Shown: in pieces, positions 8,622 to 41,594 of the stretch | How positions within the stretch are numbered: the stretch's first letter is position 1 | Layout of the letters: every line of letters starts with the position of its first letter | Assembly (NCBI GenBank): GCA_041675415.1 | Contig: JBAYTX010000008.1 | Location: 2,368 to 66,367, forward strand | Source of the DNA: Rhizobium sp. | GTDB taxonomy: Bacteria; Pseudomonadota; Alphaproteobacteria; Rhizobiales; Rhizobiaceae | Length of the DNA stretch: 64,000 nt | Reading direction: 5' to 3' | Notes under the pieces: model-generated | The model's input: only the letters and a program-made list of their open reading frames with translations | What the model was told of the DNA's origin: nothing | Database searches by the model: none | Program-made: the position numbers and the translations under genes

Positions 8622-9539
8622 TCACTGAACCGCTGGAACGGCCTTGAGATAGGCGGCTATCGCCTCTCGATCTTCGGGCGGCAGTTCGGCCATGTTCTTC
8701 TGGACCTCGACCATGGGGCCGCCAACACTGTCGAAGTCGGGCGTGAAACCGCTTTCGAGATAGTAGGCGATGTCGGCTTCCGACCAGGAGCCCATTGTTT
8801 TCGAGCCCGGAGTGATGTTGGGGATCGTGCCCTGCCCTTCCGGGTTCGGGCCACCGGAGAGCCATTTGCCGCTCTGGAAACCGCCCAGCGCATCGCGTGG
8901 CGTGTGGCACTCGCCGCAATGGCCGGGGCCTTCGGCGAGGTACTGACCGCGCTTGACCTTGTCGTCGACGCCGGCAAGTTCAACGCGTGGCGCATCGTTG
9001 AAATAGAGAAATTTCCAGCCGCCGAGCGCCAGCCGGATATTGAAGGGGAACGGCAATTCGTGCGGCGGGGCGACCTTGTCGCTCGCCGGCAGCGTCTTCA
9101 TGAATCCGAAGAGGTCGCTTATATCCTTCGGCGTCATGCGGGCATAGGAACCATAGGGGAAGGACGGATAGAGATGCTCGCCGTCGCGGCCGACACCGCG
9201 GGTCATGGCATTGCCGAACTGGGCAAGCGTCCAGCCGCCGATACCGGCTGTCCCGTCGCTCGAGATATTGGGCGCGTGGAAGGTGCCGAACGGGCTTTTC
9301 AGCGGCGCGCCGCCGGACAGGACAAGCCGTGCATCGCCTTGCGCACCCACCGGGGCATGACAACTGGCGCAGCCTCCGGCCCAGAAGATGCGCTGGCCGT
9401 TTGCGATATCGGGCTCGCCGAGGCCGGCCCAGACCTCATCGGGTTGCGGACGCGGCGCCGTGACGACGAGAAAGCCGGCGCCGCCGACAATGCCCAACGC
9501 GACGACCGCGCCGAGCCCCTTCAGCCATTTCGATGCCAT
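8622..9539 (-). CDS. di-heme c-type cytochrome, membrane anchored
   Basis: Two CxxCH motifs (CASCH and CGECH). N-terminal anchor MASKWLKGLGAVVALGIVGGAGFLVV. ATG (complement 9537-9539) with GGAGGA upstream. Confidence 0.85.
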   Translation of the reverse strand: MASKWLKGLGAVVALGIVGGAGFLVVTAPRPQPDEVWAGLGEPDIANGQRIFWAGGCASCHAPVGAQGDARLVLSGGAPLKSPFGTFHAPNISSDGTAGIGGWTLAQFGNAMTRGVGRDGEHLYPSFPYGSYARMTPKDISDLFGFMKTLPASDKVAPPHELPFPFNIRLALGGWKFLYFNDAPRVELAGVDDKVKRGQYLAEGPGHCGECHTPRDALGGFQSGKWLSGGPNPEGQGTIPNITPGSKTMGSWSEADIAYYLESGFTPDFDSVGGPMVEVQKNMAELPPEDREAIAAYLKAVPAVQ

Positions 9540-9638
9540 GGCATCCTCCGATCGCTGCCTGACGGAAGCCGAAAAGGCCGGCGCATCCCCTCCGTCTCTT
9601 CGAGGAACGGGGACGCGCCGGCAGATCTTCACCAAGCC

Positions 9639-10082
9639 CTATTTCTTCAGGCGGAAAGTCTCATGACAGGCGCTGCAAGCCGCGCCGACCGCTTTCATTG
9701 TCGCGCCGGTGGACGCCTGATCGGTAGGCAGGGCCCCAAGCTGGGCTTCCGCCACCTTCGTAAGCTCCTCGGCCTTGGCCTTGAAACCCGCCATGTCGTC
9801 CCAGATCTTCGGGCTCGCCTCGCTCTTGAAACCGGTTTCCGAGCCCGCCGGGAAATAGTCGGGGAAGGTCTTCGAAACTTCGGCCATAGTGGTCAGGGAA
9901 GCCTTCACCACTTCGGCGTCGAACGGCTTTTCGCCCTTCACGATAGCGCCGATGGCCCCCATGGCATTGCCCACCTTCTCCATCATTTCCTGACGCACGA
10001 CCTGTGGCTCGCCAGCGGCGAAAGCCGTACCCATTCCAAGACCGGCGGCTACGGCCGCAGCCATGACAAGTTTCAGCTTCAT
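9639..10082 (-). CDS. class II cytochrome c (cytochrome c'/c-556 family)
   Basis: Signal peptide MKLKLVMAAAVAAGLGMGTAFA, a four-helix-like body, and a single CSACH heme site at the extreme C-terminus, which is diagnostic of class II cytochromes c. Confidence 0.8.
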   Translation of the reverse strand: MKLKLVMAAAVAAGLGMGTAFAAGEPQVVRQEMMEKVGNAMGAIGAIVKGEKPFDAEVVKASLTTMAEVSKTFPDYFPAGSETGFKSEASPKIWDDMAGFKAKAEELTKVAEAQLGALPTDQASTGATMKAVGAACSACHETFRLKK

Positions 10083-10277
10083 CGTAACACTCCATGTTTG
10101 GTGAGCCGGACGGCGCCGGCGTTTCTCAGGCGCAACGGCGCATGATTGCCGCATAGGGTGACAGGAATGAAGTCACAATAAGGTGAAGTCGCCGATCCTG
10201 ACCAACGGATTGATAGTCATCAGCTAATCCCGCCGAAAGGCATCGCCCCTGAGGCACACAGGGGCAGATCTGGAGCC

Positions 10278-10907
10278 TCAGCTGATGCCCTCCCACAGCG
10301 TGAAAGCGGCGGCCGCGATCAGCAGCATTCCCGCGCCACGGCCGATCCAGGCAGTGACGGCCGGATTGCCGACAAGGGTCTGGCGGGCGCGATCTCCCGC
10401 CAGCGCCACCGCGCCGTAGACCGCGCCCTGCGCGGCCACGGTCATCAGTCCCATGACGATACCCTGCATCCAGATCGGCCCGTATTCGGGTTTGAGAAAT
10501 TGCGGATAGACGGCGATGACGAAGATATAGGCTTTGGGGTTCATCAGGCAGGTCGCCACCGCCTGGCGGAAGGTGGTCCATCCGCTGCGCAACCTGCCGG
10601 TCTCGACCGACGAAACGGTGATCGAGCTTCGAACCAGCGACAGGCCGATCCAGATCATATAGGCGGCGCCGGCGACGAGAACCGGCACGAAAAAGCGCGG
10701 CGCGAAGGCGACGATGAACCCGGTGCCGAGCGTGCCATAGAGCGTATGCACCGCCCCGCCGGTCATCATGCCCCCGGTTGCCGTCAACCCCGAGCGTCGG
10801 CCACCCGACAACGCGCTTGCCAGAACATAGATCATGTCCATACCCGGGACGATGATGATGCCGAGTATCAGGACGAAGAAAAGCCAGAGATTTTCGCTGT
10901 AAGTCAT
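10278..10907 (-). CDS. LysE family amino-acid exporter
   Basis: 209 aa with 5-6 hydrophobic segments and the N-terminal PGMDMIYVL motif typical of LysE/RhtB. Internal ATG at complement 10905-10907. Confidence 0.85.
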   Translation of the reverse strand: MTYSENLWLFFVLILGIIIVPGMDMIYVLASALSGGRRSGLTATGGMMTGGAVHTLYGTLGTGFIVAFAPRFFVPVLVAGAAYMIWIGLSLVRSSITVSSVETGRLRSGWTTFRQAVATCLMNPKAYIFVIAVYPQFLKPEYGPIWMQGIVMGLMTVAAQGAVYGAVALAGDRARQTLVGNPAVTAWIGRGAGMLLIAAAAFTLWEGIS

Positions 10908-11038
10908 GTCAGTATCCTTGAGGTAAGGCGAAGGCGCTGCCGCTGTTTTCAGACGACAATTCAGTCTGTTGTGACGTAACCTAGCGGCCGCCAACTGACA
11001 GCGTCCTGTCAGGAGAGACGAGAGGAAGGCCTAGAATC

Positions 11039-11743
11039 ATGCGCAAGGCATCGCGTCTTTTCGAGATCATCCAGATCCTGCGCGTCGCGCGGCGGGCAGT
11101 GACGGCCAGGACCATGGCCGAGGCGCTGGAAGTGACCGAGAGGTCGATCTACCGCGATATCGCCGAACTCCAGGCGATGCGGGTTCCGATCGAGGGTGAA
11201 CGCGGGCTCGGCTATATCCTCAGGCCCGGATTCGACCTGCCGCCTTTGATGTTCACCATCGAGGAAACGGAGGCGATGGTGCTGGCGCTGGCGCTGCTCG
11301 AGCGGACCGGTGACGGGGAACTGAAACAGGCGGCGAAGCGCATCAGCCAGAAAATCGCCGGCGCGCTGCCGCAACCCCTGCGCCAGGCGCTCTCGACGAA
11401 TGCGCTGCACGCATGGGGAAGCCCCGCCCCCTCGCCCGAGGGCATCGATCTGGCACTGGTGCGGCGCGCGATCCGCGACGAGCGCAAGTTGGAGATCGAC
11501 TATCGCGACGAATTCGGCCGGGCCACGGAACGCACCATCCGACCGATCGCGCTGATCTACTATTCGCAGACCGCCAATATCGTTGCCTGGTGCGAATTGC
11601 GGCAGGCGCTGCGCAACTTCCGCGCCGACCGCGTGGAGCATTGCGACGCTCTCGACGCGTTCTTCAAGGGCGAAGGCGAGGGATTGAGAAACCTCTGGAT
11701 CGGCGGCTGGTCCGCCAGCGGCGGTGCGCCGGAAATTCCCTAG
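11039..11743 (+). CDS. YafY family transcriptional regulator (HTH + WYL domain)
   Basis: N-terminal HTH_11-like region (SRLFEIIQILR...MAEALEVTERSIYRDI) and a C-terminal WYL-like region (KLEIDYRDEFGRATERTIRPIALIYY). Confidence 0.85.
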   Translation: MRKASRLFEIIQILRVARRAVTARTMAEALEVTERSIYRDIAELQAMRVPIEGERGLGYILRPGFDLPPLMFTIEETEAMVLALALLERTGDGELKQAAKRISQKIAGALPQPLRQALSTNALHAWGSPAPSPEGIDLALVRRAIRDERKLEIDYRDEFGRATERTIRPIALIYYSQTANIVAWCELRQALRNFRADRVEHCDALDAFFKGEGEGLRNLWIGGWSASGGAPEIP

Positions 11744-12609
11744 ATCGGAAGTGTGCGGCTCGGCTCACGGCCGAAGCCGACGATCTCCAACCGGTCGGCA
11801 TGAACCTCGACCATGGCGAAGGCGTTTTCGCGCTCGGTATCGACCATGCCCTTGAAGTTGACGAAATGGGTGCCGCCGAGCTCGCCATAATTGCCGGCGT
11901 GGTTGTGGCCGCAGAAATAGGCGGCCACCGCCGGCGACCCGGACAGAAGGCCGGCAACGGTCTCGGCGTCCCAGAGATTATGATCGTTATGCGGATAGAG
12001 CGGATAGTGGCCCAGCACAATCACCCTTTCTCCGGCGGCCTCCGCAAGCTTCAGCCGCCCGGAAAGCCAGGAAAGCTGCGCCTCGCTGACGCCGGCATTC
12101 CAGCTTTGCGCATTGGCGGCGCCGGCGCTTTTCAGCGCATCGAGCCTTTCGGCTGCCAGCGCCCGGCGCGGATCGCCAACCGGCGGGGCGAAGAGCGAGA
12201 TCTCGTTGCCGTCGGTGACGATGATCCGCACGCCGTTGCGCACGAAATCGTAATAGGGCGCAGGCATCGCCAGCTTCTCGTGGACCCCCGGCAGCTTGTC
12301 CGCGGAAACTGCGAAATCATGATTGCCCGGCAGGAACAGGCATTCATGGCGCAGCCCGGTATAGACAGGCAGGATATCGTCGAAACTCTCGAAGTCGCGG
12401 TCAATAATGTCGCCCAGCGTCAGCACGAAATCGAGATCCTCCGCATTCAGCCGCTCGACGGCCTGGCCAAGCTTGCCGAGGCTGTTGGCGTAGTAGCGCC
12501 CAAGCGTCAGGTTCGGCTCGGCGGGGGCATATTGCGGATCGGCGATGATGCCGAAACGAAGGATGGGAGCGGAGGATTTCACGGAGGGCATAGTGAGGCG
12601 TTCGAGCAT
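11740..12609 (-). CDS. metallophosphoesterase, ADPRibase-Mn / CDP-alcohol diphosphatase-like
   Basis: Calcineurin-like motifs: ADPQ, GDIIDR, GNHD, GHYP and GHNH. From memory the overall N-terminus resembles the ADPRM family. Start uncertain (ATG 12609 or 12591, neither with a clear SD). Confidence 0.75.
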   Translation of the reverse strand: MLERLTMPSVKSSAPILRFGIIADPQYAPAEPNLTLGRYYANSLGKLGQAVERLNAEDLDFVLTLGDIIDRDFESFDDILPVYTGLRHECLFLPGNHDFAVSADKLPGVHEKLAMPAPYYDFVRNGVRIIVTDGNEISLFAPPVGDPRRALAAERLDALKSAGAANAQSWNAGVSEAQLSWLSGRLKLAEAAGERVIVLGHYPLYPHNDHNLWDAETVAGLLSGSPAVAAYFCGHNHAGNYGELGGTHFVNFKGMVDTERENAFAMVEVHADRLEIVGFGREPSRTLPI

Positions 12610-13072
12610 TGAGGATGCGCGGGCATAGGATGCCCGCGTGACAAGGCAATGACAGTTAGCGTGTCGATCGACGACTCTACCTCTGGCTGCATCAATCGGC
12701 ACAATCAAGGATAGCAAATAAATTTGCCGAGATCGTCATGACTTCCGTCATTTTCAATAAATCAAAAGTTAACCATGCACGTCTAAACTTTTACCTATAC
12801 TGCTTTACTTTATAACCAGACAGGATTTTCGCACCACCAGACAAACTGCACTTTCGACAATTACTGACAACTCAACACAATAACCGACGCTGCCTATAGT
12901 TTGTGCAATTATATATATAGTTTGCACTCATTTTAGGCTAAAATTACATATTGCCGATTGCCTATTATTTTAGGCCTGACCCCATGTAACGCCGTTGCCA
13001 GAATGACCTTCCCATTCGTTCAAGACTTCGGGAACAGAATTTCAAATGACGATTGTCAAAGGAGATACTTTC

Positions 13073-30564: not shown

Positions 30565-33384
30565 TCATGCCAGGGCCCGCCGCTTCGCCGGCGGGCCGGC
30601 GACCAATTTCAGGATATCCTCGCTCGACTGGGGTTTGCCGAAATAATAGCCCTGCCCTTCCTCGCAGCCCATGCTGGCGAGCTGGCGCCATTCGGCCTCG
30701 CCTTCGATCCCTTCGCAGACCACCTTCGCGCCGAGACCGGAGGCAAGCGCCTTGATGGCGCAGACGATATTCCGGCTTGCCTGGTCGCTCGCGACATGAC
30801 GCACGAAGGTCTGGTCGATCTTGATCCTGTCTAGATGAAACTTGGCGATATAGCCGAGCGACGAATAGCCGGTGCCGAAATCGTCGAGCGCGATCTTCAC
30901 GCCGAGCACGCGAAGCGCCGAGAGCTGGCCGAGAACGGAATCGGCTGAATCGAGGAAGGCCGATTCGGTGATTTCGAGATGGAGGCGATCAGGTGTAAGA
31001 CCCGAGACCTGCAATGCATGCCGGACAGCGGCGACGATATCGCTACGGACGAACTGGAGCGGAGAGACATTCACTGCCACGGTCATGTGGCCGGGCCATG
31101 CCGAAGCGGCCCGGCACGCTTCCTCCAGCACCCACGCCCCGAGTTGACAAATGAAGCCGCTCGCCTCGGCGATTTCGATGAATTCCAGCGGCGGGATGAC
31201 GCCTTGTTCGGGATGCATCCAGCGGACCAGCGCTTCCGCGCCGATGACACCGCCGCTCGCAAGATCGACCTGCGGCTGATAGAGGACAAAGAACTGACCG
31301 CTCTCCAGCGCGCCCTTCATTTCCGCCTCGAGCGCCAACGCCCGCAACTGCCGCCCGGCAGAATCGGGATCATATACGCTGTAGCCCGATCCGGCAGACG
31401 CCCTTGCGCGATCGAGCGCCGCTTCGGCGCCGGCAACGAGCTGACCCGCGCTTCCGTGGGCGCCGGAGGAGCAGCATATGCCGATCCGCGCGCCAATCTC
31501 GGCGACAGAATTTCCGACAAAGAAGGGCTTGCTCAGGAGAGCGATCATCCGATCCGCGTAATCGGACGCCGAAGCGGCGCGCATGACGGCGGGAACCGCA
31601 ATGCAAAAGCCGTCGCCATCGGTGCGTCCGATCAATGCACCTTCGGGGACATCGTCCCGAAGGCGCGCGGCAACCGCCCGCAGCAGCAAATCGCCTGTCG
31701 CGCGGCCGAGGACCGTGTTGATGGCCGAGAAACGATGGAGGTTGAGGGCAAAGATCGCCCATCCGTCCATGCCGGCAGTCTCGATACGCCGCAGCAATTC
31801 ATCGCGTCGAAGCGCTCCCGTCAGTTCGTCGAACTGCGACAGGTTCTTCAGTTTTTCTTCATAGGCGCGGCGCTCGGTCATATCGCGCACAGTCAGGCAG
31901 GCGACGAACGGCCGCTCTTGCCCGTCGTCAGATCCATCCACTGTTTCAAGGACCGAAACCGTCACATGGCCTTCCAGCGCCCTGTTCTCCCCGCCCGAAA
32001 CCACCGAGAACTCGAATGGAACAGGCAGGACTCCGGCGCTGCCACGCAGGCCGCGCGCCTGTTCCAGCGCGGCGGCCATGGGCTTCGGAGCGTTTTCAGC
32101 AAAATCCATGCACATCGAACGGCAGAGATCCGCGCCGAAAATCACCTCGGCGGAACGGCTCGCCTCAAGCACCTTTCCGTTGTGATCGAGGATGATGACT
32201 GCATCTGCACTGTCATCGATCACCCGGCGCAACATCTTCTGGGAATTACGGCTTTCGAGTTGGGCGAGCCTGGCGAGCCAGCGGCCGATATCCACATTTT
32301 CGACAAGGTAGAGCAGCAATCCGGCCGCCAGGATCACCTGGAAGACCGCTGTCGGCAGGAGCAAGGCCCGCTGCGCCTGCAAGAGGAAGGCCGCCGCCTC
32401 CACCCCGGCGCTGGTGACAAACAGGAACGGCAGGAGAATCCAACCCGAGATCGAGTGCGCCGACCGGATCGAGATTACAATCAGTCCCGCCAGGGCCAGC
32501 GCATAGGGCATCGGATCGACGGGCACGGGCACCCGCCCCTGCAGCAGGGTCTCGGCACCGAGAATGTGGAGCATGGGACCATTCAGGAGCCCGTAGACCG
32601 GAACCGCGAATATGTCCTTGAGTTCCGTGGCAAAGGCGCCGATCACGACGGACTTGTCCGAAAGCTGCTCTTCGGGGATCGCCCCCGACAGCAGATCCGC
32701 CACAGAGAATACCGGAACCGTGCCCGGAGAGATGGAGAAATCGACGGAGAAATCCCCGGTGCGGGTCTCGGGCACCCCGGCAAGCAGGGCCGCGACGGAC
32801 TGTACCACCGTATCACCCAGCTTCACGCCGAGCGGGAGCGAGCGGACGACCCCGTCGGGATCCGGAACGACATTGGCGCTGGCCAGCCAGGCGACCTCTT
32901 CGAACTGCGCAAGCGGGCGAGAAACCACCGTCGTCTCATGCCCGGGATTGGCATTCTGATACTGCACGAAGGCCGGCAGCACGACCCCACCTCCAGCATC
33001 GGACAAGGATCGGGCGAGGCGGGCATCGGCTTCCGGGGTCGAACGGGCGCTGAAATCGACATCAAGGAAAATATCGCTAGCGCCGGCTTCGGCGAGCTTG
33101 TCGATAACCTCGGCATAGACGGTACGCGGCCAGGGCCAGACGCCTATCTTGTCGAGGCTCTGCTTGTCGATGGCGATGAAGACGAAGCGGTCACCGGCCG
33201 GTCTCGGAGCCTGGGCGGCACGCCATTCCGACAGGCCGAGATCGACGCTCCGGAGGAAGCCGGAAGCCGGGAGCGCGATCGGCAACAGCAGCAGGACGAG
33301 GGCCGTGAGGACACTATAGAAATTGATCCGCCCCGTGCTTGCGGCCAGTCTGCGCAGTCCTTTCACCCAGCCGGTCGAGGTCAT
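30565..33384 (-). CDS. CHASE2-PAS-GGDEF(degenerate)-EAL membrane signalling protein (c-di-GMP phosphodiesterase candidate)
   Basis: N-terminal TM, a periplasmic CHASE2-like region, then several TM segments. The GGDEF domain reads GRTDGDGF in place of RxGGDEF. The EAL domain is intact (EALVRW, DDFGTGYSSL, KIDQTFV, EGIE, QGYYF). The ATG overlaps the stop of the upstream FecR-like gene. Confidence 0.9.
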   Translation of the reverse strand: MTSTGWVKGLRRLAASTGRINFYSVLTALVLLLLPIALPASGFLRSVDLGLSEWRAAQAPRPAGDRFVFIAIDKQSLDKIGVWPWPRTVYAEVIDKLAEAGASDIFLDVDFSARSTPEADARLARSLSDAGGGVVLPAFVQYQNANPGHETTVVSRPLAQFEEVAWLASANVVPDPDGVVRSLPLGVKLGDTVVQSVAALLAGVPETRTGDFSVDFSISPGTVPVFSVADLLSGAIPEEQLSDKSVVIGAFATELKDIFAVPVYGLLNGPMLHILGAETLLQGRVPVPVDPMPYALALAGLIVISIRSAHSISGWILLPFLFVTSAGVEAAAFLLQAQRALLLPTAVFQVILAAGLLLYLVENVDIGRWLARLAQLESRNSQKMLRRVIDDSADAVIILDHNGKVLEASRSAEVIFGADLCRSMCMDFAENAPKPMAAALEQARGLRGSAGVLPVPFEFSVVSGGENRALEGHVTVSVLETVDGSDDGQERPFVACLTVRDMTERRAYEEKLKNLSQFDELTGALRRDELLRRIETAGMDGWAIFALNLHRFSAINTVLGRATGDLLLRAVAARLRDDVPEGALIGRTDGDGFCIAVPAVMRAASASDYADRMIALLSKPFFVGNSVAEIGARIGICCSSGAHGSAGQLVAGAEAALDRARASAGSGYSVYDPDSAGRQLRALALEAEMKGALESGQFFVLYQPQVDLASGGVIGAEALVRWMHPEQGVIPPLEFIEIAEASGFICQLGAWVLEEACRAASAWPGHMTVAVNVSPLQFVRSDIVAAVRHALQVSGLTPDRLHLEITESAFLDSADSVLGQLSALRVLGVKIALDDFGTGYSSLGYIAKFHLDRIKIDQTFVRHVASDQASRNIVCAIKALASGLGAKVVCEGIEGEAEWRQLASMGCEEGQGYYFGKPQSSEDILKLVAGPPAKRRALA

Positions 33385-34433
33385 CCATTGCGGCCTATCA
33401 ATGGGAACATCGGGTCGAGCATGGCTTTTTTCCCGTTTCCGTTGCCGTTCCCGTTTCCGTTGCCGTTCCCCTTGCCGTTGCCGTTTCCACCTGCGTTGCC
33501 GTTGCCGTGACCATTGCCTCCGGCGTTCCCGTTGCCATTGCCATTGCCTCCGGCGTTCCCATTGGCATTGCCATTGCCGTTATTGCCGCCGGGATTGCCA
33601 TTGCCGTTGTTGGCGGCATTGCCGTTACCGTTGCCGTTGCCGGAACCGCCCTTACCGCCATTGCCATTGTTGGAGTTGGTGTTACCGGATCCATTGTCGG
33701 CATCGTCGTCGGACGCGCCCGCGGCCGATTTCCCCGCATTCCCGGCGCGGCCATTCGTCGTGCCGTTGGTACCCATGCGGGCGGCATTGGCGCTGGCGAT
33801 GGACGCCGGAGTCTTCGGTCCCAGCACCGGCACGCTGGCCGCAGTCGGCGGAACAGACGCGACCTTGTCCTTCGGCCCGACGCCGACGACCCGCATTCCC
33901 TGGCCGCTGGTGGGATCGACCGTCACGCTCTGCCCAGGCCGCACATGCGCACGCTCGCCGCGCGCAAATCCGGTGACCTCGACAAGGCCGCGGCTGACAC
34001 TGACCGAGGCCGTGTTGCGGGTCACCGTCACGCCGAACTGGGTGCCCTTGACGACGGCTGCCAGGAAAGGCGTCTGAACGGATGTATGGGGCCTGTTGCG
34101 TGTCTCGATATCAAACAGCATGGAGCCGTACTGCGCGGCAATTTCCGTCTTGCGGACGAAGAAACCCGATGTCGTAAGCGACGCCAGGCTATTGGGCTGG
34201 AAAGTGATGCTTTCCTTGTTTCGCGTCAGCAGAAGCCGTCCGCGCGCGCCCGTCACGATCACCGCCTTGTTTGGGATCCTTGCGCCCACCTCGACCGCGG
34301 TCCAGGTCGCATTGTCGGTCGTGTATTGTACCGGCTGGCTGACCTTGGCAGCGATCCACTCCGCGCACTGTCCGGCACCCGCCGAGGCAAGAATGAAAAG
34401 CACCGCTGAACAGAATTTGACCACAAAAGACAT
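33381..34433 (-). CDS. FecR domain protein with a C-terminal Gly/Asn-rich low-complexity tail
   Basis: Signal peptide (MSFVVKFCSAVLFILASAGAGQCA), then a FecR-like beta-rich domain (ARGRLLLTR...GTQFGVTVT...VSVSRGLVEV), then about 110 aa dominated by GN repeats. ATGA overlap with the CHASE2 gene. Confidence 0.8.
   Translation of the reverse strand: MSFVVKFCSAVLFILASAGAGQCAEWIAAKVSQPVQYTTDNATWTAVEVGARIPNKAVIVTGARGRLLLTRNKESITFQPNSLASLTTSGFFVRKTEIAAQYGSMLFDIETRNRPHTSVQTPFLAAVVKGTQFGVTVTRNTASVSVSRGLVEVTGFARGERAHVRPGQSVTVDPTSGQGMRVVGVGPKDKVASVPPTAASVPVLGPKTPASIASANAARMGTNGTTNGRAGNAGKSAAGASDDDADNGSGNTNSNNGNGGKGGSGNGNGNGNAANNGNGNPGGNNGNGNANGNAGGNGNGNGNAGGNGHGNGNAGGNGNGKGNGNGNGNGNGNGKKAMLDPMFPLIGRNG
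33424..33775. repeat. imperfect short tandem repeats encoding the (Gly-Asn)n tract
   Basis: The plus strand is a run of GTTGCC/ATTGCC/GTTTCC units. It includes a 30-bp tandem duplication (33511-33540 versus 33541-33570) with 2 mismatches. Confidence 0.8.
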
Positions 34434-34641
34434 AGCATCCCCCAATATCCGGCTCATTGAAGGAAAAAACCCCTTAATCTTCAGTGAAGACAAGGCCCCG
34501 TCTGTAATCGTGACTAAGGGATCATGAATGCAATGGCGCGCTAAAATAAAATGAGGGATTCAGGAAAGAGCGCCGGGAACGGGCCTGTGGTGAACAGGCC
34601 ATCCGTCTGGCGCCAGCGGGCCTTCAGCGCGGCGGCGCGTC

Positions 34642-35958
34642 TCACAAGGCAGCGTTCGAAAGTCCCGGGATCTCGATACCGAAGGTATGCAACAAGAGCA
34701 CGAGGTTCAGCATCAGAACAATCGTCGTCCCGATCGCCGCGAGCGTGCGCATCAACTTGCCGCTCACGTATGCACCCATGATATCGGCCCTGCTCGTGAA
34801 GAGAACAAGCGCTACCATCGGAACCGGCAGGGAAATGCTGAGGATGACCTGACTGATGACCAGCGCCTTCGTCGCGTTGACCCCAAGGGCCACGATCACG
34901 AAGGCGGGCGCCATCGTTATGAGGCGGCGTAGCCAGATCGGAATACGGAAGTTGACGAAGCCCTGCATGATGATCTGTCCGGCCATCGTGCCGACGACCG
35001 AGCTGGACACTCCCGACGCGATCAGCGAGACCAGAAAGGCCGCGGCCGCGGCCCCGCCCAGAAGCGGCGTCAGCGAATGATAGGCGGTCTCGATCTCCGC
35101 GACCTCGCTGTGCCCGGCGTGAAAGGCGCTGGCGGCCATCATCACCATCGCGGCGTTGATCATCCCCGCCACACCGAGGGCAATGACGACCTCGATATTG
35201 GAGTAACGCAGGAGCCTGCGCCGATCATCCTCGTTGTGGATCACGATGCGGTCCTGGGTAAGGCCCGAATGCAGGTAGATCGCATGGGGCATGACGGTGG
35301 CGCCGATGATGCCCACCGAGATCATCAGCGCCGTGGTATCGGGGATCTGCGGAACGACGAAGCCCATGGCGGCATCGCCCCATGCAATAGGCGCGATGAA
35401 AAGCTCCAGCAGATAGCAAAGCCCGATCACCCCGATGAGCGCACCGATGATCAGTTCCATCGGACGGAAGCCGCGGCCCTCGAAAAGCAGGATACCATAG
35501 GTGACGACGGCGGTGACGGCCATGCCGGCCATCAGCGGCATATCGAACAGGAGCGCGAGCCCGATCGCACCGCCCAAGAATTCCGCCAGATCCGTGGCCA
35601 TCGCCGCAATCTCGCTGACGCCCCACATCACCCAGACGACGGGTTTGGGGAAATGGTCGCGGCACATCTCCGCCAGATTGAGCCCCGTCACGATGCCGAG
35701 CTTGGCTGAAAGCGCCTGAAACAGCATGGCGATGAGATTTGCCATGAGCACCACCCACAGAAGGGTGAAGCCGTAGCCGGCCCCGGCCTGGATGTTCGTC
35801 GCATAATTGCCGGGATCCATATAGGCGATGGACGCAATGATCGCCGGCCCCGCGAAAAGCAGCGCCGACCTGGGGCCGCTTCGCCGGCCCGCGAACACAT
35901 CCGCCACGCCGCTTCGCGTGCGGCCCGTCAAGGATTTATCGGAACCCACTGTCTTCAC
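34642..35958 (-). CDS. mntH: Nramp family divalent metal (Mn2+)/proton symporter
   Basis: 438 aa with the conserved AYMDPGN motif near the N-terminus and about 11 TM segments. GTG start (no upstream ATG) with GAGG 8 nt upstream. Confidence 0.9.
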   Translation of the reverse strand: MKTVGSDKSLTGRTRSGVADVFAGRRSGPRSALLFAGPAIIASIAYMDPGNYATNIQAGAGYGFTLLWVVLMANLIAMLFQALSAKLGIVTGLNLAEMCRDHFPKPVVWVMWGVSEIAAMATDLAEFLGGAIGLALLFDMPLMAGMAVTAVVTYGILLFEGRGFRPMELIIGALIGVIGLCYLLELFIAPIAWGDAAMGFVVPQIPDTTALMISVGIIGATVMPHAIYLHSGLTQDRIVIHNEDDRRRLLRYSNIEVVIALGVAGMINAAMVMMAASAFHAGHSEVAEIETAYHSLTPLLGGAAAAAFLVSLIASGVSSSVVGTMAGQIIMQGFVNFRIPIWLRRLITMAPAFVIVALGVNATKALVISQVILSISLPVPMVALVLFTSRADIMGAYVSGKLMRTLAAIGTTIVLMLNLVLLLHTFGIEIPGLSNAAL

Positions 35959-35988
35959 CGGATGCGCCTCTGATTGCCCGTGGCAGCC

Positions 35989-36010
35989 TGATTAAGCCAA
36001 GGCTACACTT
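35989..36010. promoter_or_regulatory. candidate MntR box in the mntH-mntR divergent region
   Basis: TGATTAAGCCAAGGCTACACTT contains AAGCCAAGGCTA. From memory that is close to the E. coli MntR operator core TAGCAAAGGCTA. The dyad is imperfect. Confidence 0.35.
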
Positions 36011-36161
36011 TTGTCAATTTGGATCAGCATGAAGCCATTTCTTGACCCGGCAGGTCTTCCCGTGTTTACAATGACGAGTCGTGGCTTTATGCCTTGCCCG
36101 GAATTTGACTTCGCGATGCCGCACCTGGTTCTGGCCGGCAATGCCAATCTGGAACGCACCG

Positions 36162-36599
36162 ATGTCCGAGGAAAAAACTCCAGATCACGATATGCCTGCC
36201 CAGGCCGAGCGCTTCACCCGAGCCAGAACGGCGCAATCGCACGCGCTTCTCGAAGACTATACCGAGATGATCGACGACCTTATCCGCGAACATGGAGAAG
36301 CGCGGGTCACCGACATCGCACGCCAGCTGGGCGTGACTCACCCGACGGCAGCCAAGGCGATTGCCCGTCTCAAGCGCGAAGGGCTGGCCGTGTCGCGGCC
36401 CTATCGCGGCGTCTTCCTCACCGAAGCCGGCGTGGGAATGGCGGAGCGCGCGCGCACGCGGCACCGCGTCGTCATCGATGTCCTCGTGTCGATCGGCGTG
36501 CCGGCGGATGCCGCCGAGATCGACGCGGAAGGCATCGAACACCATGTCTCCGACGAGACCCTTGCGGCCTTCGAGGCGTTCCTGCGACGCAAGCGCTGA
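36162..36599 (+). CDS. mntR: manganese-responsive DtxR-family regulator
   Basis: Collinear with E. coli MntR from memory: DDY.E.I.DLIRE.GEAR..D.A..LGV..PT.AK...RL and DAEG.EHHVS.ETL.AF. 145 aa from the ATG at 36162. Confidence 0.85.
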   Translation: MSEEKTPDHDMPAQAERFTRARTAQSHALLEDYTEMIDDLIREHGEARVTDIARQLGVTHPTAAKAIARLKREGLAVSRPYRGVFLTEAGVGMAERARTRHRVVIDVLVSIGVPADAAEIDAEGIEHHVSDETLAAFEAFLRRKR

Positions 36600-36647: not shown

Positions 36648-36666
36648 CAAGCCAAGGAGATTTTTC

Positions 36667-36900
36667 ATGGACATCGGCGCCCGCCACGGCAAGACGGCGG
36701 CTCAAGTTGCGCTGCGCTGGCTGGTCCAGCAGCAGAGCGTCGCGGCGCTGACCAAGACCGCGACCGAAAGCCGGCTCGCGGAAAATTTTGCCGTCTTCGA
36801 TTTCTCGCTCGACGGCGACGAAATGGGCGCAATCTCAGGGCTCGCCAGACCCGACGGGCGGATCGTCAACCCGGGGCATCTCGCGCCCAAGTGGGATTGA
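36667..36900 (+). pseudogene. 5'-truncated aldo/keto reductase remnant (last ~77 codons only)
   Basis: HGKTAAQVALRWLVQQ....L.K....SRLAENFAVFDFSL..DEM..I matches only the C-terminal end of roughly 275-aa AKRs. No AKR-like sequence lies upstream in any frame. The remnant retains an ATG with an AAGGAG SD. Confidence 0.6.
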
Positions 36901-36951
36901 GGGGGGGGGAATGCTGCGGAGTATCAGAACAGTGCTACGCCAACCAAAGCA

Positions 36952-37563
36952 TCACATGTAGCTTCTTAAAAAGTCGCGACCAACATGCGCTAGCGCAATA
37001 AACGATGGCGCCATCGTCAATGCCAGTCCGGATGAAAAAAGAGAAAACACAATAATTCTAAATGCGCACCTCGATCTGTCTTTTGCTTCAAAAAAATTTC
37101 GCAAGGTGAATAATTTCGCCGCCTGCTGCGGCTGGTTACCAACACCTGCCGAAATCGCATTTTTGTAGAGCTTAGCCTCTTCTTCTACAACCGATCCCAA
37201 TTCGACATGCTGCAAGATAAACTGCAACTTCTGCGACAACTCCGACGCTGTAACAATCGATTGAGCTCGCTCAACATAGTCGTCCGCCGAATTGAATCTC
37301 TTCGCGATTTCCGGCGAGGTTACTTGAAATATAAACGATCCAAGACCGAATAAAAATAGACCAAAATACAATAAATAAAACCCAATTCCTAGTTTGATTT
37401 CGGAATTGACACCCATTCCGGTGAATGGCGAAATGAACCTCGCCACCTCATCCTGCAATAGTAAAATGTATCCTATAAATGGCATCAGTATTGAAAATTT
37501 AGATACAGGAGATCTGCCGATAGAACCAAGGGCTGACCAGGTAATCTCGTAACAGAGTCTCAT
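36952..37563 (-). CDS. membrane protein of unknown family (3 predicted TM helices), second gene of the AT-rich islet operon
   Basis: 203 aa from the ATG at complement 37561-37563, which overlaps the upstream stop as ATGA. Hydrophobic helices are FSILMPFIGYILLL, IKLGIGFYLLYFGLFLFGLGSFIF and FRIIVFSLFSSGLALTMAPSFIALA, with a charged helical segment between TM2 and TM3. AT-rich codon usage unlike the host. Confidence 0.65.
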   Translation of the reverse strand: MRLCYEITWSALGSIGRSPVSKFSILMPFIGYILLLQDEVARFISPFTGMGVNSEIKLGIGFYLLYFGLFLFGLGSFIFQVTSPEIAKRFNSADDYVERAQSIVTASELSQKLQFILQHVELGSVVEEEAKLYKNAISAGVGNQPQQAAKLFTLRNFFEAKDRSRCAFRIIVFSLFSSGLALTMAPSFIALAHVGRDFLRSYM

Positions 37564-38969
37564 AACTCCAATGCATCCAAGATAGCGTTGACGTTTTCCG
37601 GTTGCAGCGCCCAACGATAAGCTGGGTGTATTTCCCAACCGTAGCCGAAATCAACAATTTCATGACCCAGAAAGCGCGATTCCTCGAAATATTTTCTTAC
37701 AAGATTACCATTTTCCTCCACTTTTCTAGCAGTTATAAAATCTATTTTATACAAAAATTGTATCAACGCGCGCGAACTAACCGCCTTACCATTCGTAAAT
37801 GTAAAATTATTCTGTTGAATAATATTCGTAAGCTTCCTAGACAACTGATCAGTTGGAAACGTATAATTTGTTGCGGTTTTCCGCTCTATCTTTGTTGGCT
37901 TCATGGCAAGAAGCAAACGTTCAATCTGTGGTAACTCACTCTTGAATTCGTTTATGATATCCTGCAAGCGCTCTTGCGAATACATCTCAAAAATGCCATT
38001 TAGATCTTGCGATGATATGATACTGGCACCACGCTTGTTTGCACTTTTCGCCGCAAGCCGAAAGAGCTTCACTAGGTCACGTGGTCTCGCCCGCGTCAGC
38101 GAAAGCAGGATTTTGTGAACCGGCCGATCCTCCCACTTACCCTTTCCGGAAAACCGAGGCTCAATAACTTCCTTTAGTATAAGACTGGTAATCTGTCCTT
38201 GATCAAGATTATCAATAGCCTGCTGCGTGTACTCTAATCTGAAGAACGTAGCAATTCTCTTTGCAATGACCCGTAGAATGTCATCATTAATCCATCTCAG
38301 CCAAATGACATTTCCTTCAATCTTATCCGTTGACTCGTCCGACGTCCGAACCAAAAAATATACGTCACTTCTAAGTCCGATTCGGAATCGGATGCGTGGG
38401 TGTTTCCCCCCTATATCGCGGATAGCGTTTAGCAGAGCAGAAATATTTGTGATATCTTCAGGGTTTGCTTTCCATCCGCGGTCTATGTCATCAATATAAA
38501 TATTGATCGAGCGGACGTCCCCGTTCTCTAACCTCTTTTCGTCTAGCCACTTTACGATTAACTCAGCAAGAGAATTAGCAGAGGCATTTTCCAGCTCAGG
38601 GAGCTGATTGAGCATTGCCTTTTCAAATAGTGCGCCGAGTATTTCCCTTAAAATTCCTGTTTTCCACACCGAAATTTTGCGTACGAATTGGTCGTTTGGG
38701 TTGGTATCTGTCTGCACATTGAGCAATGCGTCCGGCTGCAACCAGACACAGGGAATATGCGCCTCTACGTCTGACAGATAAGCCCGTTTAAGAAGCGCGC
38801 TTTTGCCGACTCCTTTGTGACCAACAAGAACCCGTACAGGCAAGTTAGACGTCAGGGAGTCGTAAGCCATGTTCCTATAGAAGTATTCCTTCAGGCGTTC
38901 ATCGTTCTCATTTTCCGCATCATCCGCGCCAAATATTTGTTGTATCGTTGCATCGTCAAATGTGTGCAC
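37560..38969 (-). CDS. P-loop NTPase of unknown family (AAA+/STAND-like), first gene of the AT-rich islet operon
   Basis: 469 aa. Walker A GHKGVGKS (38799-38822) and Walker B INIYIDDID (38481-38507). There is a lid/sensor-2-like stretch, LTRARPRDLVKLFRLAAKSA. GTG start with GAGG 7 nt upstream. This is the only long ORF in a roughly 2-kb AT-rich stretch. Confidence 0.75.
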   Translation of the reverse strand: MHTFDDATIQQIFGADDAENENDERLKEYFYRNMAYDSLTSNLPVRVLVGHKGVGKSALLKRAYLSDVEAHIPCVWLQPDALLNVQTDTNPNDQFVRKISVWKTGILREILGALFEKAMLNQLPELENASANSLAELIVKWLDEKRLENGDVRSINIYIDDIDRGWKANPEDITNISALLNAIRDIGGKHPRIRFRIGLRSDVYFLVRTSDESTDKIEGNVIWLRWINDDILRVIAKRIATFFRLEYTQQAIDNLDQGQITSLILKEVIEPRFSGKGKWEDRPVHKILLSLTRARPRDLVKLFRLAAKSANKRGASIISSQDLNGIFEMYSQERLQDIINEFKSELPQIERLLLAMKPTKIERKTATNYTFPTDQLSRKLTNIIQQNNFTFTNGKAVSSRALIQFLYKIDFITARKVEENGNLVRKYFEESRFLGHEIVDFGYGWEIHPAYRWALQPENVNAILDALEL

Positions 38970-39003
38970 CTGAGGACCTCAGATTCATCGTTCAACATCA
39001 CTC

Positions 39004-39031
39004 GTTATAGATAATGCAATTCTTGTTTGAA
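39004..39031 (-). promoter_or_regulatory. sigma70-like promoter candidate for the islet operon
   Basis: The minus strand reads TTCAAA-N16-TATAAC, about 35 nt upstream of the GTG start. Confidence 0.3.
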
Positions 39032-39209
39032 GCACTACCGATTGTGTACCTTAGCGCGACATTTTGAAGTGCATTCCTTCATCCCGCAAGTCTTGCGCGC
39101 ACTATTCCGCAGACTTCTCAACGTTGCCCACTCCAAAAATACGTAGGATCGCTCCAACGGCCCTGTCCAGTCGGTAAGCGTTCACGCGGCGCCTCCACCT
39201 CCTCCGTCA

Positions 39210-39336
39210 CCCCGGCCCTGAGCCGGGGGCCAGCAACGGCGCAGCAAAAGACTCCTCTCGCGATCAATGTCTTGATCGCGCTGGATGCCGGATCAAGTCC
39301 GGCAGGGCGGCGGGTTTCTGCTTGCGCCGGAAACCC
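39210..39336. repeat. stack of four GC-rich stem-loops (REP/RIME-like mosaic)
   Basis: CCCCGGC-CCTGA-GCCGGGG (39210-39228); CGCGATCAA-TGTC-TTGATCGCG (39259-39280); TGCCGGA-TCAAG-TCCGGCA (39286-39304); GGGTTTC...GAAACCC (39312-39336). Confidence 0.45.
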
Positions 39337-39347
39337 CCACCCCAATC

Positions 39348-39377
39348 AAAAAAAACCGCCGGATCGCTCCGGCGGTT
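39348..39377 (-). terminator. rho-independent terminator of the 39404-39793 gene
   Basis: The minus strand reads CCGCCGGA-GCGA-TCCGGCGG followed by T8. Confidence 0.7.
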
Positions 39378-39403
39378 TCTTCATTCCAATCCTTGCGCCC
39401 GTC

Positions 39404-39793
39404 TCAGACGAACTGGCTCAGGCCCGGAACCGAGGAGACGACGTTGTCGACCACTTCGTCGCCGGCATATTCGCGGGCGGCGGCGATCGTTTCCCTGGCG
39501 AGCGCGGTGATCTCGCCCATACCGAGGCCCTGGGCCATCAGCTGCTGGCCGAGACCCATGATGCCGCCGCCGCCGATCGCGCTCATCAGCCCGCCGAGGA
39601 TGCCCTTGCCCTCGCCTTCGCCATTGTACCTGGCGACGAGATCCATGGCGCCGGGGACCGCCTCGATCATCTTGGCGACCGGACCGTCGGCCGCTTCGCG
39701 CTGGAGGAAGCCGAGCATCATGCCGACGGACTTTTCCGCGACGTCCGGCTCGATGCCGACCTTGTCGGCGATGCGGGTTACGAGTTCATTCAT
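39404..39793 (-). CDS. small conserved hypothetical protein (possibly DUF2780-like)
   Basis: 129 aa with a strong SD (GGAGG) and a strong terminator. Helical N-terminal half and a Gly/Met-rich centre (GGLMSAIGGGGIMGLGQQLMAQGLGMG). The family name is tentative. Confidence 0.55.
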   Translation of the reverse strand: MNELVTRIADKVGIEPDVAEKSVGMMLGFLQREAADGPVAKMIEAVPGAMDLVARYNGEGEGKGILGGLMSAIGGGGIMGLGQQLMAQGLGMGEITALARETIAAAREYAGDEVVDNVVSSVPGLSQFV

Positions 39794-39814
39794 GGCTTGC
39801 CTCCTGTGGATATT

Positions 39815-39830
39815 TTGACGTTAACGTCAA
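39815..39830. promoter_or_regulatory. perfect 16-bp palindrome TTGACGTTAACGTCAA upstream of the 39404-39793 gene
   Basis: Seen directly, 22 nt upstream of the ATG at 39793 in a divergent intergenic region. Confidence 0.3.
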
Positions 39831-40031
39831 CGTAAATTATTCGGGCTGCGAACTCAAGCACCCATATCGCGTTCCACGGCATTCTCCGCGCATTCTCCGG
39901 GGCGCGGGGCGCGGCTCCATCCGGGCTGTTGTCATGTTCCACACTATCCTTATAACTACAATACGATGTTTCATTGAAGAGTGGGAGTCCGCCGGCGGTG
40001 CCGCCGGCATTCCCCGCGAAGGACGAGGCGC

Positions 40032-41594
40032 ATGCTCGAAGACGGAAAGCTCTATATCGGCACCAGCCGCAATCCCGACGACAGCCTCAACAAGGGCGAA
40101 TATCTCGAGCTGAAATACGGCAACCGCCACGGCATCGTCACCGGCGCCACGGGCACCGGCAAGACGGTGACGCTTCAGGTGCTGGCCGAGAGCTTTTCCA
40201 ATGCCGGGGTGCCGGTGTTCTGCGCCGACATCAAGGGCGACCTCTCCGGCATCGCCGTCATGGGCGAGCCGAAGGACTGGGTCGACCAGCGAGCCAAGCT
40301 GATCGGTTTTGACGATTTCGCCTACCAGGAATTCCCGGTGATCTTCTGGGACCTCTACGGCGAGCAGGGCCACCGGGTGCGCACCACCGTCGCCGAGATG
40401 GGGCCGCTTCTGCTCTCCCGGCTGATGGATGCATCGGAAGCGCAGGAAGGCGTCTTGAACATCGCCTTCAAGATCGCCGACCAGGGCGGGCTGCCGCTGC
40501 TCGACCTGAAAGACCTGCAGGCGCTCCTGAACTACATGGGCGAGCATGCAAGCGAGCTGTCGAGCCAATTCGGGCAGATCTCGAAAGCGTCGGTCGGCTC
40601 GCTGCAACGCGGCCTGCTGATCCTCGAACAACAGGGCGCGGAAAATTTCTTCGGCGAGCCGGCGCTGGCGATCTCCGACATCATGCGCACCACCAATGAC
40701 GGGCGCGGGGCGATTTCGGTGCTGGCCGCCGACAAGCTGATGATGAACCCGAGGCTCTACTCGACCTTCCTGCTGTGGCTGTTGTCGGAACTGTTCGAGG
40801 AATTGCCGGAAGTGGGCGATCCGGACAAGCCGAGGCTGGTGTTCTTCTTCGACGAGGCGCATCTCCTGTTCAACGACGCGCCGAAGGTGCTGATCGAGCG
40901 GATCGAGCAGGTCGTCCGCCTCATCCGCTCCAAGGGCGTCGGCGTCTATTTCGTCACCCAGAACCCGCTCGACGTGCCGGAAACGGTTCTCGCGCAAATG
41001 GGCAACCGCATCCAGCATGCGCTGCGCGCCTACACGCCGCGCGAGCAGAAGGCGGTCAGAACCGCAGCCACCACCTTCCGCCCCAACCCGGCCTTCGACT
41101 GCGAGACCGCGATCACCATGCTCGGCATCGGCGAGGCGCTGGTCTCGACGCTTCAGGCCAAGGGCGTGCCCTCGGTCGTCGAGCGCACGCTGGTGCGCCC
41201 GCCGTCGGGGAGGCCCGGGACGATCAGCGAGGCCGAGCGCCGCGCGGTGATGAATGTGAGCCCGGTCGCGGGCGTCTACGACAAGGATATCGACCGGGAA
41301 TCGGCCTACGAGATCCTTCTTGCCCGCGAGCAGAAGGCGGCCGAAGCCGAGGCTGCCCGGCGGGCGCAGGAAGAGGGCCGCACAGCCGACAGCGCCGAAG
41401 GCCGCTGGACGCTGCCCGGCTTTGGCACCGAGGACGACGACGAGCGCACGACCAAGACCAGGACGACAACGATGCGCCGAACCTATCAGCGCGAAACGGT
41501 GTTCGAAGCGGCCATGAAGAGCGCCGCACGCTCGGTGGCCAATTCCGTCGGACGGGCGATCGTGCGCGGAATTCTGGGAAGCCTGAAGCGGTAG
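40032..41594 (+). CDS. DUF853 / YjgR-type HerA-like P-loop ATPase
   Basis: Walker A GATGTGKT, Walker B VFFFDEAH and a C-terminal basic tail. The N-terminus is typical of the YjgR family. Internal ATG at 40032. Confidence 0.85.

Follow-up and report, generated by a model that had tools for sequence, protein, structure and literature searches.

What does a pair of overlapping genes in an AT-rich islet of a Rhizobium genome do? The pair lies in a stretch of 64,000 nucleotides (nt) from Rhizobium sp. (GenBank assembly GCA_041675415.1, contig JBAYTX010000008.1, positions 2,368 to 66,367 of the forward strand), which we call the window and by whose numbering we give positions unless another source is named. 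Its first open reading frame, ORF1 (37560..38969, minus strand, GTG start, 469 amino acids (aa)), encodes a P-loop ATPase of the Sll1717 family, and its second, ORF2 (36952..37563, minus strand, ATG start, 203 aa), encodes a membrane protein. An earlier note on this DNA had described two co-directional minus-strand genes of these lengths joined by an ATGA overlap, and the coordinates and codons are as it gave them: the TGA stop codon of ORF1 (37562-37560) overlaps the ATG start codon of ORF2 (37563-37561) within 37560..37563, implying translational coupling of the two genes. The locus, we propose, probably represents a known type of defence in a new, two-gene form; it is not categorically new, because its ATPase family already has a name and a validated defence member. 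Across the variants of this proposal that are weighed below, anti-phage defence is the most likely function, and we consider it a likely one.

On the NCBIfam model NF047389 (P-loop ATPase, Sll1717 family) ORF1 scores 238.7 bits (E 1.4e-70, cut-off 75), and by this comparison it is clearly a full member of the curated family. The earlier note had been unable to match the pair to a named system; the family to which the ATPase belongs also holds DS-41, a gene of the F plasmid and a gene of a Pf prophage. DS-41 is one of the 31 validated systems of the DefensePredictor study (Science 2026, PMC13092281), a single 502-aa E. coli gene, 'AAA2' (WP_033812887.1), with plaque data against Bas phages in the supplement and with homologues that reach as far as Halobacteria. 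The 399 residues of DS-41 printed in that supplement score 92.2 bits on NF047389, above the cut-off, and 325.9 bits on the DS-41 model NF053860. ORF1 and DS-41 therefore stand in one curated family, since both pass the NF047389 cut-off. ORF1 is a family relative of DS-41 and not its orthologue; BLASTP joins the two proteins only in short matches at common motifs. The likeness comprises Walker A and Walker B, the 'AENE...Y' stretch that precedes them near the N-terminus of both proteins, and the lid motif PR(D/E)L(V/I)KL, where SPRELIKL of DS-41 aligns with TRARPRDLVKL of ORF1; the proteins are also of comparable size (~470-500 aa), and neither has a recognisable enzymatic effector domain. They differ in that DS-41 acts as one gene, whereas ORF1 is coupled to ORF2 here and in 11 Hyphomicrobiales contexts, and also in host and phage range, which are wholly unlike.

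Other members of the family bear or accompany defence-like features. The F-plasmid gene (WP_000422420.1; NC_002483.1, 4303-6399) encodes a 698-aa 'hypothetical' protein that scores 291.9 bits on NF047389, and it adjoins a Tn3-family transposase and resolvase. Its product carries an extra soluble C-terminal domain of ~200 aa, which matches the PADLOC candidate model PDC-M36A and in which a PD-(D/E)xK-like motif was spotted by eye. The gene looks like defence cargo. We also considered whether this protein is a fusion of the ATPase with an ORF2-type membrane protein, and ruled this out because the extra C-terminal 200 aa are soluble and are not of the membrane family. The filamentous Pf phage PfAC09 of Pseudomonas carries a solo Sll1717-family ATPase (the ORF1 of that genome, 158-1660), which is annotated 'DNA-binding protein' and adjoins the excisionase end of the genome. 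Scores on NF047389 range from 218 to 292 bits for the F-plasmid gene, the Pf gene and one further homologue, and tblastn with ORF1 matched 130 plasmid records, mostly of Escherichia and Klebsiella. Like ORF1, the F-plasmid and PfAC09 proteins match NF047389 over their full length and are encoded as AT-rich cargo on mobile or variable DNA. Unlike ORF1, the F-plasmid protein has a fused soluble C-terminal domain instead of a membrane partner, and the Pf copy, as is the case for most genomic copies, is solo.

Known defence genes are enriched beside homologues of ORF1; the earlier note had proposed a check of this kind for the pair. We surveyed 80 representative genomes from more than ten phyla, the ATPases of which are 42-98% identical to ORF1, and compared the two ORFs that flank each ATPase (150 ORFs) with PADLOC. 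These flanking ORFs match 111 PADLOC models, whereas 115 control ORFs located ~8 kb away in the same loci match only 9, all of them generic or weak. Strong and specific flanking matches are those to HmaC (1e-108), AbiU (2e-108), DrmMI (4e-89) and AbiEi (5e-89), and to type IIG restriction-modification, GajB, a DRT reverse transcriptase, PDC-S26 and PDC-S60. The guanine-plus-cytosine (GC) content of the ATPase gene is on average 17 points below that of its flanks, and it is at least 5 points lower in 70 of 72 loci. Closer to ORF1, a 2803-bp block containing both genes and 560 bp of upstream sequence is 99.9% identical in two unrelated contexts, once between housekeeping genes in R. multihospitium and once with a type I restriction-modification system as its neighbour, which shows that the two genes travel together. 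The defence role that the earlier note had assigned to the pair is thus favoured, indirectly, by the family link to DS-41, by the enrichment of defence genes and by the recurrence of this nearly identical cassette.

Is the pair itself conserved? Wherever in the Hyphomicrobiales the ATPase reaches 57% identity to ORF1, both genes are kept; this holds for all 11 distinct contexts of that kind, namely Ciceribacter, three Rhizobium species, Brucella pituitosa, Rhodopseudomonas, Chelativorans, Bradyrhizobium, another member of the Rhizobiales and two metagenome contexts. The most divergent of them still share 57% identity in the ATPase, but only ~25% in the membrane protein. Close relatives of ORF2 have, at every locus, an Sll1717 ATPase of 464-479 aa directly upstream, the two genes being spaced by -8 to +4 nt, and in each paired locus the GC content of the module is lower than that of the flanks by 10-23 points. 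Six of the 80 surveyed ATPases are at least 57% identical to ORF1, and all six are paired. In the genomes compared, pairing of this kind appears confined to one Hyphomicrobiales clade, and its distribution supports a history in which a conflict ATPase captured a membrane partner and kept it in a single lineage. A second association comes from a Pirellulales metagenome-assembled genome, in which a distant member of the membrane family (8963-9793, minus strand, with an insertion between helices 1 and 2) divergently adjoins a solo-clade ATPase (9911-11431, plus strand). This adjacency is unlikely to be due to chance because the membrane family is rare, and it is independent of the pairing in the Hyphomicrobiales clade. 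In Bradyrhizobium sp. AT1, we note, the paired ATPase gene (9998-11421) is split into two overlapping ORFs in a frameshift-like manner and the membrane gene is intact.

ORF2 belongs to a family that the databases do not describe. It has no significant match in Pfam, NCBIfam, PADLOC or PHROGs, in keeping with the earlier note, which had seen no enzymatic motif in it. A word-seeded search found 10 relatives, all in Rhizobium or Ciceribacter; an exhaustive profile search found 1065 clusters (50% identity, E <= 1e-3), 472 of them at E <= 1e-10. None of the 72 listed relatives with precomputed Pfam results has a domain. Family members are ~200 aa long and share an N-terminal motif, W..L..IG.S...K...P..GY, that runs into the first helix. 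The second helix (LY.LYFGL) is very hydrophobic, and between it and a long C-terminal hydrophobic helix lies a helical stretch of variable length; the C-terminal helix has its own motif (R....Y..G..L..IPS). The AlphaFold2 model of ORF2 is all-helical, with a mean predicted local distance difference test (pLDDT) score of 75 and long helices at residues 19-44, 60-82 and 166-202. The earlier note had called ORF2 a three-helix membrane protein, which is plausible, not proven: two segments are strongly hydrophobic (~56-82 and 166-189), and the N-terminal segment is weaker and passes the threshold in homologues. By hydrophobicity, alignment and model, and reading all positions on the minus strand, the weaker helix 1 (residues 19-44, SK..ILMPFIGY.LLLQ) is at 37432..37509, predicted transmembrane helix 2 (residues 60-82, FYLLYFGLF.FG..SF) at 37318..37386 and predicted transmembrane helix 3 (residues 166-202, R...V..LFS.G..L...PS..AL) at 36958..37068. 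The predicted soluble helical region between the last two (residues 83-165, 37069..37317, model helices 85-162), which is the part that varies in length across the family, would be cytoplasmic by the positive-inside rule. The model has no significant fold match in PDB or BFVD, and the sequence has no match in PDB; non-significant helical look-alikes such as BAR domains (E > 0.2) were discarded as clues to its fold.

Elsewhere the membrane family keeps different company. On plasmid pRL11 of Rhizobium johnstonii 3841 a distant member (108180-108800) lies directly downstream of a DUF262 gene, in a defence-type island whose other genes encode DUF4917, a RES/Xre toxin-antitoxin pair and a DNA methyltransferase, and DUF262 may there be an alternative partner. 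This location and the Pirellulales adjacency both link the membrane family to the biology of the pair. The upstream neighbours of metagenome members are unrelated, with uvrA in three loci and AAA_25 and HTH_3 in others. As a separate observation, in the three metagenome contigs with uvrA the membrane-family gene is directly downstream of it; insertion may have recurred at this site, or the context may be a conserved one.

The structure predicted for ORF1 suggests how the ATPase might work. The earlier note had named K56 of Walker A and D160/D161 of Walker B, and these residues are present and invariant in 18 homologues. Walker A (GHKGVGKS, residues 50-57, 38799..38822) and Walker B (IYIDDID, residues 157-163, 38481..38501) are, like all ORF1 features, on the minus strand; G50, H51, K52, G53, G55, K56 and S57 are invariant in the former and Y158, D160, D161, I162 and D163 in the latter. 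A third motif, TRARPRDLVKL (residues 292-302, 38064..38096), is invariant at R293, R295, P296, R297 and D298 and would, given the fold match described below, be an arginine motif of sensor-2 type within the lid of the AAA+ module. The C-terminal domain (~residues 360-469, 37563..37892), which is winged-helix-like in the AlphaFold2 model (H373-386, H399-408, E412-417, E423-426), holds the most conserved motifs of the family, QFLYKIDF and WEIHPAYRWALQP, both of which served as search patterns for ATPase homologues. The whole model (pLDDT 81) comprises an AAA+ base, a lid and this domain. Of the two Foldseek searches that the earlier note had recommended, the one with ORF2 yielded no significant match, as reported above, and the one with ORF1 yielded archaeal ORC2/Cdc6 (1w5s and 2qby, E ~1e-7) as best PDB matches, followed by eukaryotic ORC/Cdc6 and then by the archaeal ATPase SSO1545 and BrxC (E 1e-7 to 1e-5). 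ORF1 is thus predicted to have an ORC/Cdc6-like AAA+ fold.

How far does this likeness go? With ORC/Cdc6-type initiators and related archaeal ATPases (1w5s, 2qby, 2fna) the ORF1 model shares the base, the lid and the winged-helix-like domain at a Foldseek probability of 1.0, together with the arginine-rich sensor-2-like motif. It differs from them in that template-modelling scores are only 0.37-0.45, ORF1 has no match among PDB chains by sequence, the locus has no replication context, and the Pfam ORC-CDC6-like model PF24389 gives 21.9 bits, below its gathering threshold of 27 and over the first 50 profile positions only. Matches to Pfam AAA_16 and nSTAND1 (17.8 bits, gathering threshold 27.1) are likewise sub-threshold, and ORF1 matches two PHROGs families, both of unknown function. 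We rejected assignment of ORF1 to the STAND NTPases (Avs/nSTAND), given the sub-threshold nSTAND1 match, the lack of repeats and a length of only 469 aa, and to the KAP/Tmn NTPases, given the lack of a hydrophobic segment and of a PADLOC match.

The islet that holds the pair spans ~36905..~39160 (~2.2 kb), contains ORF1 and ORF2 only and has sharp edges in a 100-nt GC profile. The GC fraction of the module is 0.44, compared with 0.635 in the flanks and 63% GC for the genome, and we agree with the earlier note that the islet was acquired horizontally. ORF1 and ORF2 are real genes under purifying selection, since the ratios of nonsynonymous to synonymous substitution rates (dN/dS) against their Ciceribacter ferrooxidans orthologues are 0.06 and 0.19, respectively. 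Both start codons agree with the N-termini of aligned homologues, and GGAG / GAGG motifs lie 5' of each. For the promoter that the earlier note had proposed, TTCAAA-N16-TATAAC (39004..39031, minus strand), the hexamers (TTCAAA 39031-39026, TATAAC 39009-39004) and the spacer are present, the 3' end being 34 nt before the GTG; a consensus promoter scan does not list it because the final base of the -10 hexamer is C, not T. The hexamers are unchanged in C. ferrooxidans, as is nearly all of the surrounding sequence, and we read the element as a weak promoter candidate.

The comparison with C. ferrooxidans also bears on the history of the islet. Positions 36669-39160, which cover the islet and a remnant of an aldo-keto reductase gene, are 93% identical to C. 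ferrooxidans, whereas the HerA-like flank (39190-41594) is just 81% identical, and this difference suggests that exchange of the islet postdates the divergence of the chromosome around it. No tRNA, integrase, transposase, terminal repeats, or flanking direct or inverted repeats beyond chance were found in the islet and its borders, and mobile-element borders were therefore ruled out. On one side the islet adjoins the aldo-keto reductase remnant and mntR/mntH, and on the other a DUF2780-like gene and a HerA-like ATPase. The remnant (36661-36900, plus strand) encodes the last ~60 residues of the enzyme (Pfam profile positions 231-289 of 291) and is preceded by AAGGAG-N7-ATG; the same reductase is intact in C. 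ferrooxidans (274 aa). Its 5' part is replaced in the window by mntR/mntH (34642-36599), with a breakpoint near 36669, so that synteny with C. ferrooxidans is broken at the edge of the islet. The downstream edge (36901-36909) is marked by a run of nine C, read on the minus strand, where C. ferrooxidans has five.

How might the two proteins act together? We propose that the cassette is a horizontally mobile anti-phage pair in which ORF1 senses infection and gates ORF2, leading to abortive infection, and we hold this specific proposal to be about evenly balanced between right and wrong. First, nucleotide binding and the sensing of infection would both fall to ORF1, its winged-helix-like C-terminal domain probably recognising a phage nucleic acid or a phage protein. 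Second, ORF1 would alter its ATP-dependent oligomeric state and, through physical contact, act on ORF2, opening or disordering it in the inner membrane. Third, the changed ORF2 would serve as the killing effector, dissipating the membrane potential and halting the infected cell before phage release. We infer this mechanism from the coupling of the genes, from the lack of an enzymatic effector in either protein and by analogy with defence pairs elsewhere in which one partner is a membrane protein. From what is generally known of them, Kiwa (KwaA/KwaB), Rst_Hydrolase-3Tm and Tmn/KAP likewise combine a soluble NTPase or DNA-binding component with a small multi-pass membrane protein on mobile, AT-rich DNA. 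The cassette differs from KAP/Tmn in that ORF1 has no transmembrane insert, from Kiwa, Zorya, Rst_Hydrolase-3Tm and the other membrane systems of PADLOC v2 in that none matches ORF1 or ORF2 at E <= 1, and from Kiwa, Rst_Hydrolase-3Tm and Tmn/KAP in that ORF2 lacks any fold or PDB sequence match.

A broader form of the idea extends to the whole ORF2 family. In this form, the family would be a portable membrane module of immunity that works solo or with changing partners (a DS-41-type ATPase, possibly DUF262), and the cassette would count as a two-component anti-phage system not described before, its ORC/Cdc6-like AAA+ protein being the switch that gates a membrane effector of a new class. We offer it tentatively and think it rather doubtful that all of it holds. 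The arrangement of ORF1 with ORF2, and the ORF2 family, are absent from the libraries that we searched, namely Pfam (2025), PADLOC v2 (2023), NCBIfam (2026), PHROGs, PDB and BFVD, the last a collection of viral structures. The literature search, for its part, returned nothing relevant that joins a Cdc6-type ATPase, phage defence and a transmembrane partner.

Several observations weigh against gating and abortive infection as the function of the pair. The only measured anti-phage phenotype in the family is that of DS-41, and none comes from the ORF1 clade; on the DS-41 model itself (NF053860, 'DS41_1_antiphage'), ORF1 scores 34.8 bits over its N-terminal 160 residues only, where the equivalog cut-off is 370. 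Neither ORF1 nor ORF2 matches a PADLOC v2 model at E <= 1, which rules out a named defence system of that library for the pair, in agreement with the earlier note. ORF2 has neither a toxin or enzymatic motif nor a fold match that would indicate a pore. The islet's neighbours in the window are of housekeeping type (mntH/mntR, HerA-like), and many neighbours of the ATPase homologues are, by Pfam, ordinary housekeeping genes as well, from which it follows that the ATPase gene often inserts singly. The only known study of Sll1717 itself reportedly dealt with how reduced or oxidised the plastoquinone pool is in Synechocystis, and not with phage; our literature search found no papers for Sll1717 or for the F-plasmid accession WP_000422420.1.

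The distribution of the two families weighs in the same direction. Conservation of the pairing, which the earlier note had proposed as a check, extends to the close contexts and stops there. Among the 74 surveyed ATPases below 57% identity, three have too little downstream sequence to judge, and a membrane-family profile finds the membrane gene downstream of none of the other 71; a membrane partner as a general trait of the ATPase family is thereby ruled out, being present downstream only in the clade of at least 57% identity. Conversely, no ATPase lies near distant membrane-family genes at any of 26 distinct loci, of which three are long-contig or genome contexts (B. diazoefficiens blr7681 and two others, all solo) and 23 are metagenome loci with neither an ATPase nor a remnant of one. 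The notion that membrane-family genes always follow an ATPase was accordingly dropped. Because both families are mostly solo, a protein of the ORF2 type is not the general effector of the ATPase family, and the ATPase evidently works without a membrane partner elsewhere. The earlier note had seen in the pairing of an NTPase with a membrane protein the grammar of many abortive-infection systems; what we find is an arrangement of one Hyphomicrobiales clade and not a general one of either family, most relatives of the ATPase and most sampled relatives of ORF2 being solo.

These last observations lead to the main rival of gating, with which the present data are also compatible. It also assigns the locus to defence and makes the ATPase a self-sufficient effector, for example one that binds and blocks phage DNA by means of its winged-helix domain, with ORF2 not as a killing pore but as a sensor of envelope perturbation or as a tether that keeps the ATPase at the inner membrane, the site of phage DNA entry. 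Kiwa, in which a membrane sensor is joined to a DNA-binding effector, provides a parallel. We judge this arrangement rather unlikely. Most members of the ATPase family are partnerless and DS-41 protects as one gene; the predicted fold of ORF1 resembles that of DNA-binding initiators; and ORF2 is devoid of toxin and enzymatic motifs. ORF2 also evolves faster than ORF1 (omega of 0.19 versus 0.06, and ~25% versus 57% identity), as expected for a phage-exposed component. The solo members of the membrane family would, however, require another explanation.

Less probable still, and in our view improbable, is that the cassette is a selfish module of mobile DNA, of the addiction type or the exclusion type (akin to a toxin-antitoxin pair, or a competition factor of a plasmid or of an integrative and conjugative element), and is not directed against phage. 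Its low GC content everywhere and its movement as a unit would suit such a module, as would the homologues on the Tn3-family transposon of the F plasmid, in the 130 plasmid records and in a Pf prophage, and the window has no defence genes beside the islet. However, the islet is without an integrase, transposase or terminal repeats, the family member DS-41 has a measured anti-phage phenotype, and it is defence genes, not mobility genes only, that are over-represented beside the homologues. Finally, a cellular membrane role outside conflict, such as regulation of a respiratory or transport process (reportedly proposed for Sll1717 in Synechocystis), is very improbable: the family takes its name from a chromosomal gene of a cyanobacterium, the product of ORF2 is a membrane protein and its neighbours in the window are housekeeping genes, but the family is spread patchily, members from different phyla (more than ten in all) being 44-50% identical, its GC content is strongly deviant, it has no conserved metabolic neighbour, and insertion sites differ even within Rhizobium.

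Two features elsewhere in the window are recorded here for completeness. The product of a gene at 33381-34493 (minus strand), 370 aa in length, begins like a signal peptide and ends in a long repeat rich in Gly and Asn (GNGNGN); its N-terminal part is 76% identical to its C. ferrooxidans counterpart. At 12001-13000 there is a second, milder dip in GC content (0.55 compared with ~0.63).

What would the cassette mean for its family and its hosts? If it protects, the DS-41/Sll1717 family would extend from a single-gene to a modular system. Three effector arrangements are visible in sequence: the solo ATPase, the ATPase with a fused soluble C-terminal domain, as on the F plasmid, and the ATPase with a membrane partner, as here. 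If it does not protect, the pair would be one more instance of AT-rich cargo. Protection would, in addition, provide the first functional handle on a membrane family of more than 1000 clusters that has no database annotation, and rhizobia, in which few defence systems have been tested, would gain a native one. Related ATPases with and without the partner constitute a natural experiment that could show which components an ORC/Cdc6-like ATPase requires for defence.

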